DNA of 64,000 nucleotides from NCBI GenBank assembly GCA_951406725.2, contig OX597822.1, positions 5,828,001-5,892,000 on the forward strand, given 5' to 3'. Position numbers and translations under genes: made by a program. Source of the stretch: Octopus vulgaris (lineage: Eukaryota). Below are positions 26,804 to 59,895 of the stretch, piece by piece; the first letter of the stretch is position 1, and each line of letters opens with the position of its first letter. The notes under the pieces are model-generated. The model ran no database searches. It was given only the letters and a program-made list of their open reading frames with translations, and had not been told where the DNA came from.

Positions 26804-27045
26804 ATATTATATTTATATATATATATATAAAATTTAATAAGGGTAGAAATTGATATTAATCACTTAAAACCAGTGGCCCAGCATATTAAAAAAATCCGAA
26901 GATTAAAATATTTTTACATACAAAATTTAAAGGAATGACCATTTGAAAGATACACAAAAATATAATTGGTTGGACTCCATGCATGCGAGACTCCGGTCAA
27001 ACGTTTTTGCATCTAGTCCTGCAAATTGTATTTCTATATGACAGA

Positions 27046-27109
27046 CCATGCTGACGAGATTGCAGTTTATCCCTGCGGATATTAACAATCGAAACTGATC
27101 GGTACATGG
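27046..27109 (+). ncRNA. Type I hammerhead ribozyme
   Basis: CCATG-CTGACGA-GATTG...CAATC-GAAA-CTGATCGG-TA-CATGG. Stems I, II and III pair; GUA cleavage triplet, cut after 27104. Confidence 0.85.
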
Positions 27110-27568
27110 GTAATCATTTTTATTTCATATATTTTCATGTCTTGCTTATTTTTAATGCTTTGGTTTGTACTGAGTTTTTTATTTGAGAACATATTCTTTG
27201 TGGAAAATAGCGATTCGACGTCTATATCTAGCATGTTGACAGTCCACTTTTAGTGGTCAGTCCTTTAAATTTTGTATATATATATATGTAAATTTTTTTG
27301 TAGAAGATAAAAATTTCAGTTCACTTGTCAGTACTTTGCATCCACTGTAAGCACGATTTCGTTTTTTGGATGTAAAGTATTGACAACTGAAATTTTCATC
27401 TTCTACAAAAAATTTTTTATTATTCCTTAGCTCATAAACGAGCAAAAAACAGTTGTACTATACACGGAGTATTGTCTCCATTAAAAATTCTCTTGTATAT
27501 ATATATATATATATATATATATATATATATATATATATATATATACATATATATATATACACACACAC

Positions 27569-27790
27569 ACGAGGAGGTACTAAAAAGTTGCTGGGCTTAA
27601 GGGTGTCATGAAATGACTCGTTTGGGGCCAAAAATTCCTGAGTTCATTTACAGTGTTTAGAAAAACTGAAGGACTACTGCAATAAGTGTGTGAATCTGAG
27701 AGGGGAATATGTTGGATAAAATCGTATTTAACTGATCCTCCTGTATTTTCTTTTCCCCAAAGTCACGAACTTTTCAGCCCTCCCCTCTGT
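27569..27790 (+). mobile_element. mariner-derived MITE
   Basis: ACGAGGAGGTACTAAAAAGTT left end is roughly complementary to the AACTTTTCAGCCCTCCCCT right end. Confidence 0.6.
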
Positions 27791-28562
27791 ACACTGTACA
27801 CCTATCATTAGCAGTGTGTTCCCACCACAATATTTGGGGTTAAAGAAAACCTGTTGAACGTACTGATATTTTGTATCATTTATTTTTTTTATCTTTTACT
27901 TGTTTCCGTCATTAGACTGTGACCATGCTGGGGCACCACCTTGAAAAATTTTATCTGAAATTACTGAGCCCAATACTTACTATGTTTTTATAAAGCCTGG
28001 AATTTATTCTATCGGTCTCATTTGGCAAAGTGCTAAGTTACAGGGATGTAAATACACAGTTGTCAGTTGGGGGTAGGGGACAAACACAAACACAAAGACA
28101 CAGACAGGCACACATGCATGTGCACACACACTCACACACACACACACACATACACAAACATGATGGGCTTTCAGCTTTGGTTAGCCTGAGGCACTTGCCA
28201 AGGTGCCATGCAGTGGGACTGAATCTAGAACCATATAGTTGGGAAGTATGTGTATGTGTTCTTTATATTTTGTAGAGTGTGAATGGGAGAAATAGGATTG
28301 ATGCGGAACTCCAGATCAGTCTCAGTCAAGTTGCTTAATTGGTACACAGTCGGTTGGCTTAGCATTGGGGTAGCATTGTAGCCGTGTTTATGATTTAGGG
28401 GCTTTCACTGGTCATTTGACTCGCAATACCTTATATTTTATTGACTTACAATATATAATGACTCCTAATATCTCTAAGGTTATAGAGATAGCCATTAGCA
28501 ATAATATATTTCAATGCCTATCCCTTTCTCTCTCTCTTCCTCTTTATTGACCATCAGTTGCT

Positions 28563-28896
28563 GCTGAGACCCCCTTTGGTCATGACTGATTATGGGATTG
28601 TACCTAGAAAGCTACCTTCCCAGGCACAAGTCCGGGCAAGTTTGTTTATGGAAGACCAGCAGTCGCCCATGCATACCAGCCTCTCCTCTCCACACCACCA
28701 GTGTTATCCAAGGGAAAAGCAAAGGGGCCGATATTTCTTGGCACCTGTGACATCACAACTCATTTCTACAGCTGAGTGAACTGGAGCAACGAGAAATATA
28801 GTGTCTTGCTCAAGATCACGTGCAGCCTGGTCTGTGATTCGAACTCACAACCTCACGATCATAAGCTCGACACTCTAACCACTGAGCCATGCGCCA
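28563..28896 (-). mobile_element. SINE with family B head and alternative tail (copy at 51565-51901)
   Basis: Same tRNA head and TCTTGAGCAAGACACT block, different 3' half ending GGGGTCTC. Confidence 0.75.
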
Positions 28897-28999
28897 TCAG
28901 TATGGATTCCATAAAACCAAATTTGTTGGTAAATCTACTTTCCTTTGGCCCTCAGGTTGTGGGTTCTTGCCTTGAAGTAATTTGGGGAAAGAAATATCA

Positions 29000-29840
29000 G
29001 CATGCTTGACAAAGCTTTTGACTGTCTAGCATGCATACTTCCTATCTATAGATGTCAACCAGCTTTCATCTATTGGATCAGTAGCTTCCTCTCAGGTTGC
29101 CTCATTTGTAGACCTCTTTCTACCCATCATTCTATCAACTCTGACTTGCTTTCCAATTTTGTTTTTGTCTTACACTCTCTTCCTTCTCTTCATAACCAGA
29201 GAAGACAGATAACTTATTGGTCTAAAATCGGCCACATACAGACTCTTGCCTCTGGTCTTCAGGCACATTGTCTCCTCTCTCTGCCTTTTCTACTGCAAAT
29301 ATACTGGACTCTGCTTGTCATTTCAAAACTTCTCACCTTAGCTCATTTTACTTCCACTCTGACAGTCATACGTCATTCCTATGTCAATCTTATTTCTTTA
29401 AAAAGGACAAAAATACTCAAGAAAATATCTTTGCAGCATACACCACCTCATCATGAGCAGCACTCAGCTAGAGTGCTACTCCACTTGTTGGCTTGTAATC
29501 ACTGAAGATCTCAAAAGCATATCCTTAATCTACATAGGACTACATCTCAACAACCAGTCCTTTTCTTTAGGGTTGGGAGATACTTCAGCTCCTAATAATT
29601 ATTGGTATTCTACAAACCTCAGATGAAGCCCACAATAAAATATTGCTCTACCCACTACTCTTTCCTTCTCTCATCACTTTAGCTGTGTGCAACTCTACCA
29701 GCCTCTGCACTGATAACCTGATAACTACACCCAGTCCTTTTTTCCCTGACCATTAGCCCCCTGGAATTACCTCTCTGCTCATATTTTCCCTGCTAGTGTT
29801 CATTTACAGATATTCAAGAGGAACATTAATGGTATCAATG
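29000..29840 (+). mobile_element. Highly decayed CR1/jockey-group LINE RT fragment
   Basis: LDKAFD-like and ILFYKPQMKPTIKYCS-like remnants, with many stops. Confidence 0.4.
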
Positions 29841-57514: not shown

Positions 57515-57629
57515 TGTATGTATATCCATTAAGAAGGAGCTTTCTACCACAATGTGCTGTTTTAGTGAATTCCATGGTCAAACTGTGGGGATAAAATGAT
57601 TTACTTAAAAAAAATGTAATTAAATTGTG

Positions 57630-57912
57630 AACTGTTTTTAATCTCATTAAATCTTAAGTGCTAAATTAGTGAATTGGTCATTAGACTATGTAGGTAGATA
57701 TATTTATTTTATTATAATTTTTATCTATTAGGAAAAGATCTTTTTGAGATTAACTATTTTTAATCTCGTTAAATCTTAAGTGACAATTGGTGAACTGGTC
57801 ATTAAATTATGTAGGTAGGAATGGTTTTTCCATTATTATTTTTAACTATTTTTAATCTCGTTATATCTTAAGTGCCAAATTGGTGATTTAATAATTAAAC
57901 TATGTTAGTAGG
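57630..57912. repeat. Three diverged ~95-120-bp tandem repeats upstream of the MULE ORF
   Basis: AACT(A/G)TTTTTAATCTC(G/A)TTA(A/T)ATCTTAAGTG occurs three times. Confidence 0.7.
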
Positions 57913-58069
57913 AATGTTTTTTTTTTATTATTATGTCCATTCAGCTCTATGTCTGTTCTGCATTGTGCATTTGGAATCCTGTCTGTGCACGATATGCATA
58001 CATACAGGTGTGTGTGTATATATGTGTGTGTGTGTGTGTATATATATATATATATACATATATATAAAT

Positions 58070-58395
58070 TTATATAAATTAGAGAAGAACCACCATGTAG
58101 CAATTCAACAATGATATACTTAAATCATACCATATATAAAAAAATTAAAGATACGATAAAACATTTACCTACAGCTAAATAAAGTACGAAATAATAAATA
58201 AATTGTATATAAATAGTCTATTTATTAATTATTAAATATATTAATTAATTAATTACATACAATTTATTTATTATTTCATACTTTATTTAGTTCTAAGTAA
58301 ATGTTTTATCGTATCTTTAATTTTTTTCTCTATGGTATGATTTAAGAATATAATTGTTGAATTGCTACATGGTGGTTCTTCTCTAATTTATATAA
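58070..58395. repeat. Long inverted repeat (~140-bp arms) next to a TA tract
   Basis: AAATTAGAGAAGAACCACCATGTAGCAATTCAACAAT ... ATTGTTGAATTGCTACATGGTGGTTCTTCTCTAATTT. Confidence 0.9.
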
Positions 58396-59308
58396 AGGTA
58401 TTATATATTGTGAAATTTGATTTAGTATTACTAAATTGAATTTTTCCCTGTAAGTTTGGAATCATATTCCCTAATATTATTATTGTTATTGTTATTATTA
58501 TTATTATTATTATTATTATTATTATTATTATTATTATTATCATTATTATTATTATTATTATTATTATTATTATTATTATTATTATTATTATTATTATTAT
58601 TATTATTATTATTATTATTATTATCTTATATATATATAAGAGAGAGAGAAAGAAACATACTTCTTCATCCACATTCAAACATGCTTTCTAATCAGTCACT
58701 GGGCCAATAGTGGCAAATTAAGTATGTATATATATATATATATATATATATATATGCATATAAAAGGAGCAATGAGAAAATGGAGATAAAAATGGTAATT
58801 AATGAACATCAATTTTTTTTTATGTAATCAGTAAATAATAATTGATGTTTATCAATTATCATCTTTATCTCCATTTTCTTATTTTTCCTTAAATATAGAT
58901 AAACTTCAGTTTATTTCCTTACCTGTCATTTATGAGTATTGACACTAACAGTCTTAATCACATATAGGTAATATGCCAGCGATTCATTGGAAATAAATAT
59001 CCCTTAGATGTTTTTGTAACCTCTACTTGAACTCACCTATATGTGTGTATGTATGTATGTATCTCTCTCTCTCTCTCTCTCTCTCTCTCTCTCTCTCTCT
59101 CTCTCTCTATCTATCTATAAATCTATCTATCTATCTATATCTATATCTATATCTATATATATATATATAACTTATAAACAAGGGCAAAAGAAAATATTTC
59201 TAATGCCAAATATGCCGAAACTAGACACATTGTCCATAACCATATAATTTATCACAATAAGTACATTACTCAAAGAAAGCCGACAGAAATTTTAAAAAAA
59301 TTCCGTTA

Positions 59309-59369
59309 TTACCATATCGGACCCGATTTCAGAATTAGTTCATAAGAACCTTCCCTTCGTCAGTGATAA
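59309..59369 (-). ncRNA. Type I hammerhead ribozyme
   Basis: TTATCA-CTGACGA-AGGGAA..TTCT-GAAA-TCGG-GT-CCGA-TA-TGGTAA. Confidence 0.78.
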
Positions 59370-59895
59370 ATGCAGCAAAGAAATAAATGAAATACTTACT
59401 TATACCCATGGAAGAAGCAAACACTAAGTCATGAGCACAATTAAGTACCCCAAATATATCCAAAATAGAAATTCTCCAGCCCATTCGAGACACGTGCGAT
59501 TTGAACTGAAACTCTCACAGAGTGAGAGAGTCCGGAAGTGAATACTATTAAATTTACATCTAATATAGGATAAAATTTTTCGAAAAAAATTTTATCCATG
59601 GCCAGCATATTAAAAAATTACCTTTAAAGGTTAGATTTATAAACAACTTATAAACAAGGGCAAAAGAAAAAATTTCTAATGCCAAATATGCCGAAAAGGT
59701 ATTTTTTAATATGCTGGCCATTGATAAAATTTTTTCGAAAAATTTTATCCTATATTATATGTATATATATATATACGTTTATATACGTTTATATATGTGT
59801 GTTTATATACCGAATATATATGTGTATATATATACATGTGTGTGTGTACGTATGCACACACACACATACTTATATTTATTTATATCTATATTGTA

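Follow-up and report, generated by a model that had tools for sequence, protein, structure and literature searches.

A 64,000-nucleotide stretch of the Octopus vulgaris genome (assembly GCA_951406725.2, contig OX597822.1, positions 5,828,001 to 5,892,000 of the forward strand; hereafter the window, numbered from its first letter) contains eight type I hammerhead ribozyme motifs, each embedded in a short AT-rich insert associated with (TA)n tracts. The eight inserts are very probably twin-primed, 5'-truncated 3' ends (pseudo-long terminal repeats, pseudo-LTRs) of eight families, four of them coding Penelope-like elements (PLEs) and four made of units lacking an open reading frame (ORF). In every family the 3' ends downstream of the ribozyme gather at two points. 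The distance between these is about 40-120 nt in the eight families of the window and reaches about 155 nt in other families, and head-to-head insertions combine one short and one long end almost without exception. An initial annotation, made from the letters of the window, had described the sites as a single dispersed group of TA-targeting ribozyme retroelements, either Penelope-like or retrozymes. The Penelope-like lead was right, but the notion of a single new group was not, the coding families falling into two distant clades and Hydra PLEs with a hammerhead and (TA)n preference having already been published. Similarly, the retrozyme reading fits the ORF-less, retrozyme-like units of four families and fails for the other four, which are coding PLEs.

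The sites are labelled by position as A (27046), E (31570), F (36051) and H (52286) on the plus strand and G (42243), B (50100), C (50931) and D (59309) on the minus strand. The insertions and their ribozymes are as follows.

26831..27272, plus: family A insertion, an inverted arm with 3' tail (26831-26941, long end) and a direct arm (26940-27272, short end); the insertion has TA on both sides and covers part of a unit of about 535 bp that has no ORF and stands head to tail in locus L319.
27046..27109, plus: hammerhead A, CUGACGA at 27051, stems I/II of 5/5 bp, palindromic helix III CUGAUCGG, predicted cleavage after 27104.
26876..26895, minus: tail motif, sense UUUUUUAAUAUGCUGG(G)CC, common to A, D and G and lying between the short and long 3' ends.
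31496..31661, plus: family E insertion, from the 3' end of an element of Hydra type, with a long-ended inverted tail arm and a short-ended direct arm.
About 31567-31625, plus: hammerhead E, altered core CCGAAGU at 31570.
35846..36170, plus: family F insertion, Hydra-type 3' end whose short end abuts TA and whose 5' side carries an inverted piece of 60 bp.
36051..36138, plus: hammerhead F, CUGAAGA at 36056, stem I of 5 bp, U-U at 10.1/11.1, long stem II, helix III CGAUUG.
42078..42549, minus: family G insertion, a permuted monomer (short end) of a unit of about 545 bp that lacks an ORF; the hammerhead is at 42243-42317.
49915..50173, minus: family B insertion, a short-ended, 5'-truncated fragment of a unit of about 567 bp that lacks an ORF.
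50100-50162, minus: hammerhead B, CUGACGA at 50156, A-A at 10.1/11.1, helix III CGGCCG.
50782..51535, minus: family C insertion, long end; the 3' untranslated region (UTR) and pseudo-LTR that make up the terminal 754 bp of an autonomous Hydra-type PLE of 4.65 kb.
50931..51021, minus: hammerhead C, CUGAUGA at 51015, stems I/II of 6/7 bp, helix III CGAUUG, predicted cleavage after 50937.
52040..52407, plus: family H insertion, an inverted arm (52040-52229, short end) holding a second hammerhead copy on the minus strand, and a direct arm (52235-52407, long end).
52286-52323, plus: hammerhead H, UUGAAAA (U3-A8) at 52289, in the 3' end of a putative Neptune-type PLE.
59170..59762, minus: family D insertion, slightly more than one copy (59170-59697, short end) of a 475-bp unit without an ORF and an inverted tail arm (59695-59762, long end).
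59309-59369, minus: hammerhead D, CUGACGA at 59363, 10-nt palindromic helix III.

A strict type I descriptor recovered three motifs in the window (27046-27109 plus, 50931-51021 minus and 59309-59369 minus) against none in 60 local dinucleotide shuffles. A relaxed one, tolerating a mismatch at the first stem II pair and a U3-A8 core, recovered six (A, B, C, D, F and H, adding 36051 plus, 50100 minus and 52286 plus), with shuffle means of 0.03 for the C core and 0.17 for the T core. The motifs thus exceed shuffled controls, and the four initially called near-canonical were all retrieved, that at 50100 by the relaxed descriptor alone. Six of the eight window copies show the type I arrangement CUGANGA...GAAA...UH, or its U3-A8 covariant, with stems I, II and III; the cores of E and G are altered. 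All eight sites are type I hammerhead motifs, E and G being variant or decayed family copies, as had been proposed for 42243 minus and about 31569 plus. The G core in the window reads CCGAAGA and that of 13 of 14 other aligned copies CTGAAGA, so that the U4-to-C change is private to the window copy. The window copy of E has the core CCGAAGT and a stem I shortened by the inversion junction; CCGAAGA is common in its subfamily, as judged from the alignment of other genomic copies. Two further calls needed correction. The hammerhead placed at about 36079 is real but starts at 36051, its core CTGAAGA at 36056 being intact and the CTGATGT near 36081 falling within stem II, and the one at 52286 is not decayed, its U3-A8 core TTGAAAA being fixed in 21 of 21 other aligned copies. 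An Rfam scan of the window returned no hammerhead at gathering or at E-value thresholds; therefore, these motifs fall outside Rfam models.

The CCGA core (U4 to C) was also encountered elsewhere: in 10 of 10 copies of the E subfamily (L326-L335), in L284 and L336:1224, and in both repeats of a young 778-codon element (L276). Its recurrence means either that the change is tolerated or that the ribozyme is dispensable. A scan of 360 kb of random genome sequence for this core gave no motif, indicating that the variant is not common genome-wide.

The inserts measure 166-754 bp, with a GC content of 0.23-0.34, and TA tracts flank both sides in seven of the eight, that at 35846-36170 having TA on the right only. 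The original description of inserts of 150-750 bp bounded by (TA)n largely stood, as did the anticipated inverted 5' segments, found as inverted arms in several window insertions, and the motif GGCC(C)AGCATATTAAAAAA near 26876 and 59600, to which a third, inverted copy near 59704 was added. When used as queries against the 2.8-Gb assembly (227 contigs), all eight inserts returned 1,211-4,040 first-look candidates each, figures that are not copy numbers, and 40 were scored per query. The best non-self copies were 92-100% identical, and each site belongs to its own high-copy family.

The abundance of hammerheads was assessed with the relaxed descriptor in 36 arbitrary 10-kb stretches (360 kb). 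Fifteen intact motifs were found against 0-1 in eight shuffles, or one per 24 kb, clustered in 10 of the 36 stretches; extrapolation gives roughly 1e5 intact motifs per genome. The earlier figure of one element per 8 kb fits the window with its decayed copies included, but not this rate for intact motifs in random stretches. A (TA)5 tract lay within 250 nt downstream of 10 of the 15 motifs, against 13-17% of random positions (200-300 nt), so that the TA association first noticed in the window extends to the random sample.

The arrangement of the two 3' ends provided the main clue to the insertion mechanism. Once duplicates had been merged and read-through ends discarded, a short arm was paired with a long one in 60 of 62 head-to-head insertions; 51 read-through ends, some of them probably real, were dropped for this count, and four long-plus-long pairs vanished with that filter. 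The pairing also held for insertions that had not been found through a two-armed query (41 of 43), and in other, overlapping sets (47 of 49, and 15 of 16 for loci found by protein or by chance). Among the 60 pairs, the arm reaching further 5' was the short-end arm in 28 and the long-end arm in 27, both being equal in five. TA-like microhomology of at least 3 nt was present at 55% of 103 short ends, compared to 8% of reference positions.

Inverted arms could also arise by fold-back, that is, self-priming of one cDNA or of an antisense template in place of two target-primed events, as proposed for rotifer Penelope elements from their palindromic junctions (PMC3846280). We consider this unlikely here. 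In the 28 pairs mentioned above the arm that extends further 5' stops at the short site and lacks a tail that its partner carries, and in the 27 others the shorter arm halts at the short site rather than copying through. Copy-back along a single first-strand cDNA yields neither pattern, although the antisense-template variant lies outside this argument. Since the longer arm can lack the tail, which a single-cDNA copy-back cannot produce, we infer two priming events. The short-plus-long pairing favours twin priming over fold-back, and the two-stop rule is likely a trace of copying that began on both cut DNA strands, at two different points of the element RNA.

In the twin-priming mechanism that we propose, the GIY-YIG endonuclease would cut both strands of a self-complementary (TA)n tract, and each free DNA end would prime reverse transcription on a read-through tandem sense RNA. 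One end would start at the proximal and the other at the distal initiation site, assisted by UA-like microhomology of 2-8 nt. Both cDNAs would then stop early and be joined head to head, generating short, often palindromic, TA-flanked inserts. A wider proposal that we favour with caution holds that some 1e5 hammerheads come from many co-active PLE families; that a single complex primes both (TA)n strands from two sites on one RNA; that TA specificity is largely a matter of UA microhomology and not of the linker zinc finger; and that the ORF-less units copy the two-site tail to hijack the complex.

TA was found at the 3' end in 99 of 107 family loci (family F left out), including 20 of 20 for C and 14 of 14 for E, in searches whose queries favour window-like ends. 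These tracts might have been made or expanded by the insertion itself, through slippage of the reverse transcriptase (RT) on UA motifs and later microsatellite growth, instead of being targeted. That the stops sit on UA-like template motifs, that 82 of 95 plain 5' ends lack adjacent TA and that no empty site was observed all speak for it. However, plain 5' ends are enriched about fourfold for TA, the window 5' ends of B, C and G abut TA, no long TA tract follows either stop in the read-through templates, and a preference for (TA)n has been reported in both Hydra and Neptune (PMC8557442). We thus regard an origin of the tracts by insertion as improbable, and targeting of TA by twin-primed PLEs as the better account.

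An RT and GIY-YIG endonuclease (EN) parent, which the initial annotation had suggested seeking by extension of copies, was found for four of the eight families (C, E, F and H). Extension of family C copies in the 5' direction enters an RT plus GIY-YIG ORF, open over about 980 codons in many copies and preceded and followed by identical hammerheads 4,650-4,713 bp apart. The C protein contains the RWK (RIRWK) and DKT (PADKTG) motifs of the RT N-terminus and a CxCX5C linker, and its EN has CxxC before the conserved E and CxH after the conserved N, without CCHH. The 4.65-kb element includes Asn-rich inserts and a 1.5-kb 3' UTR. For family E, a Hydra-type EN in a broken ORF piece continues unbroken into the 3' UTR in L356, from which its linker and EN motifs were read. 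Family F is represented by broken ORF pieces, collinear upstream in L279, that are 64% (RT) and 58% (EN) identical to C-lineage proteins; its assignment follows from this 58% identity to a Hydra-type EN. Walking upstream from family H reached first an EN that has CCHH and a CX4CxxC linker, and then a young family of 784-codon ORFs. The encoded protein carries DKG (EADKGS), the linker CGRPNCGIC and a CCHH-type EN (CSGC plus two downstream His) matching GIY-YIG in Pfam (E 2.8e-5), and the same hammerhead stands in both repeats, 4,386 bp apart. On these motifs the H parent appears to be Neptune-type, Neptune and Nematis not being separated by a tree. Hydra-type and Neptune-type parent proteins are about 21% identical. 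PLE hallmarks are present as well: pseudo-LTRs from partial tandems, an inverted 5'-truncated copy and a one-ended tail.

Further Hydra-type families with long open frames (1090, 842, 727, 899, 778 and about 904 codons) each have their own hammerhead. In family C and the 1090-codon family (L169-L174), long Asn-rich in-frame inserts lie between the RT thumb and the EN. The 727-codon (L189-L222) and 784-codon (L336-L345) families are very young, with dozens of near-identical open ORFs and 63 and 142 scored matches, respectively; the 727-codon hammerhead has a 2-bp stem II and is missed by the descriptor. The 899-codon (L271-L274) and 778-codon (L275/L276/L278) families show RW, DKT, CxxC and CxH and lack the CxCX5C linker. 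Seven of seven loci examined from these linker-less families end in (TA)n, which casts doubt on the suggested connection of TA targeting with the zinc finger in the linker. A protein search with a family protein retrieved relatives mostly of about 700 aa at 31-45% identity, the closest named ones from Octopus sinensis and Argonauta. A 'putative ankyrin repeat protein' of O. sinensis at NCBI (P0046) matches the Hydra-type RT N-terminus over its first approximately 200 residues, 69% identical to C, and is probably a gene model that absorbed a PLE fragment.

The contribution of ribozyme cleavage to these structures was also considered. Helix III is self-complementary in all eight motifs, with self-duplex energies of -4.8 to -15.0 kcal/mol, and forms a monomer hairpin in D only. 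Monomer folds were mostly no more stable than shuffles (z above -1.4 in seven of eight), a result to be expected of hammerheads, and they were left out of the evidence. Cleavage is predicted solely as a dimer or with the help of protein. One of 173 5' ends lay within 3 nt of the predicted cleavage site and 48 lay within 60 nt; the 3' stops are well downstream of it, long ends being 93-283 nt away. The idea that cleavage sets the element ends was rejected on these grounds. The truncation points bear no imprint of cleavage, and the hammerhead is a passenger of the pseudo-LTR that does not set the insertion ends.

The claim that each motif is a potential self-cleavage site in intronic RNA is unsupported, given the single monomer hairpin, the two altered cores, the lack of a 5'-end pile-up at the cleavage site and the failure to detect a host exon in the window, where 139 of 145 candidate ORFs were scanned and transposase-type domains alone matched. 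An intronic location of the inserts is not established. Retention of the hammerheads by the host as regulatory cleavage sites is very improbable: cores and stems are conserved and covary among families, but this conservation operates at the level of the transposon family, single copies decay (E and G in the window, and many others), the motifs are oriented both ways and the ORFs scanned included no host exon.

In families A, B, D and G the sequence past the 3' end runs for 200-300 nt to the next hammerhead, defining head-to-tail units of about 535, about 567, 475 and about 545 bp, respectively, with one type I hammerhead each. No parent of these units was found among all collected loci and four extended candidates (L280, L281, L282 and others). 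RT/EN fragments beside B and D copies were rejected as parents, TA tracts in between or unrelated orientation marking them as independent insertions. The four families are likely mobilised in trans by PLE proteins. The tails of A, D and G (e.g. 26831-26941 and 59560-59650) are alike, consisting of a hairpin, the motif UUUUUUAAUAUGCU(G/A)G and a second hairpin, and A and G are similar also across the unit junction. The shared tail is a candidate protein-binding signal that may point to one mobilising partner.

Circularly permuted units without an ORF, arranged head to tail and each bearing a single type I hammerhead, also characterise metazoan non-LTR retrozymes (PMC7229834), and all eight families might be viewed as a separate TA-targeting, non-autonomous retrozyme class spreading through self-cleaved circular RNA monomers. 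Continuity of C, E, F and H with RT/EN coding sequence refutes this for half of the families, and the ORF-less units share the two-stop ends and inversions of the coding ones. Spread as circular monomers is further disfavoured by the scarcity of 5' ends at the cleavage site, and by the presence of dimers and trimers only among the fetched loci, where long arrays were not searched for. We hold such a class to be quite unlikely, and PLE ends with probable non-autonomous partners to be the appropriate description.

Several points weigh against this description and the mechanism attached to it. In the covariation analysis of ten related C-lineage hammerheads, 87% of cells were paired, compared to 32-45% in slid controls, with two-sided changes in 10 of 18 pairs, but the set was picked with a pairing descriptor and an author-written structure, and so leans toward that structure. 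The clade calls follow motifs and not a tree with named reference proteins; among the Hydra-type proteins, neither an RT nor a GIY-YIG domain was recognised by Pfam; and family C, at 4.65 kb, exceeds the <3 kb described for Hydra, a length that is descriptive and not diagnostic. Because a parent was not found, mobilisation of A, B, D and G is argued solely from shared anatomy. The remaining two of the 62 head-to-head pairs are short-plus-short. Of plain 5' ends, i.e. those not at inversion or tandem junctions, a minority touch (TA)4 (13 of 95, against a background of 3.6%), and no empty site was seen, the contigs of four runs holding no joint that spans insertion A, which proves nothing. With no empty site and few 5' ends at TA, a pre-existing TA target is not established.

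Other elements occur in the window. The following insertion is a ninth PLE-like one.

36190..36420, strand not assigned: tail-only head-to-head insertion of another hammerhead family, this copy without ribozyme.

In other copies of that family the ribozyme (U3-A8) ends about 77 nt upstream of the matching part, and the family supplied six of the 15 random-sample motifs. Similar TA-bounded palindromic inserts without a hammerhead lie at 58064-58401 and 58756-58900, with one and no matches, respectively, among the collected loci. A different repeat ending in CTAGT (50300-50678) occupies part of the TA tract that separates B from C, and further copies of it adjoin other PLE ends; from its resemblance we assume that it is possibly a Helitron-type non-autonomous element. 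Transposase remnants were recognised at 56574-57191 on the minus strand (FLYWCH, E 1.5e-4) and 40100-40267 on the plus strand (mariner HTH_48, E 3.7e-6), and broken frames of a transposase remnant without Pfam match at 32379-33861 (plus). Two minus-strand elements at about 7500-13400 and 13700-19900, with RT frames of 1091 and 858 codons, lie between (GATA)n arrays; we take them to be of L1/Tx1 type.

These results add members to known PLE clades, together with likely non-autonomous partners; PLE hammerheads, TA preference, inversions and tails have already been published. The best mechanistic addition is the end-pairing rule. How PLEs insert is still debated, as regards fold-back versus twin priming, target selection and the role of the ribozyme, and the many young intact families, with a countable signature of short-plus-long ends and UA microhomology, make these questions directly testable. 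The young 727- and 784-codon families are good material for biochemistry. Pfam and Rfam miss these elements, so that the PLE and ribozyme content of such genomes is likely undercounted. In the available part of a repeat annotation of O. vulgaris, 31 Penelope-like families are given as recently active, and ribozymes are not mentioned (PMC13282606). Neither a genome-wide hammerhead count for octopus nor a count of short-plus-long pairing was found in the literature, subscription papers and Repbase being outside the search.

Among known systems, the Hydra clade is characterised by a C-terminal GIY-YIG, RWK, DKT, a CxCX5C linker and CxxC/CxH beside E and N, without CCHH (PMC8557442). Its elements are generally <3 kb, and Hydra-1_Obim of Octopus bimaculoides combines (TA)n preference with a hammerhead (Craig et al. 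2021). The Hydra-type families described here share the Hydra EN/RT motifs, a type I pseudo-LTR hammerhead, (TA)n insertion and a tail at one end; the U-U at 10.1/11.1 of F and G also recurs among many listed Hydra hammerheads. The families here differ in the size of family C (4.65 kb, with its Asn-rich inserts and 1.5-kb 3' UTR), in a much longer stem II (55-60 nt enclosed), in tails of 40-155 nt versus 30-40, in the number of long-ORF Hydra-type families (at least seven versus one listed for octopus) and in two families (899 and 778 codons) that lack the CxCX5C linker and are nevertheless TA-ended. Asn-rich inserts like those of C and the 1090-codon family are described for rotifer Penelope elements (PMC3846280). 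The H parent resembles Neptune in its DKG, CX4CxxC linker, CCHH-type C-terminal GIY-YIG, pseudo-LTR hammerhead and microsatellite insertion, and differs by the U3-A8 core of its hammerhead. Minimal dimer-type PLE hammerheads, with a short palindromic helix III and U3-A8 covariants, number 2,000-9,000 in the genomes listed by Cervera and de la Pena 2014 (PMC4209133); dispersed single copies of truncated PLEs, opposite-strand pairs 100-700 bp apart and thousands of motifs per genome are common to both, in contrast to the estimated 1e5 intact motifs, longer stem II and recurring CCGA variant found here. For non-LTR retrozymes, a PLE origin has been proposed (Cervera and de la Pena 2020, PMC7229834; Li et al. 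2026, 10.64898/2026.07.22.740005). Families A, B, D and G are like them in being head-to-tail ORF-less units with a type I hammerhead, and unlike them in measuring 475-570 versus about 300 bp and in being mostly dispersed and truncated, with PLE-type inversions; they are known here from sequence alone. The one-ended tail has been described qualitatively in two studies (PMC8557442; PMC3846280), the latter proposing self-priming. A further parallel is the Poseidon PLE of Anolis, for which in vitro target-primed reverse transcription revealed two internal RT starts downstream of the hammerhead that bound the tail, both target strands being cut and extended and hammerhead cleavage being dispensable (PMC11167929, Frangieh et al. 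2024). There the start is AC-rich and not target-homologous, with no difference between strands, a discrepancy to be added to the points raised above against our interpretation; in octopus, the stops coincide with UA-like motifs, and in 60 of 62 insertions each arm uses a site of its own. In both systems two sites downstream of the hammerhead delimit the tail, and the biochemistry of Poseidon fits the genomic two-stop ends reported here.

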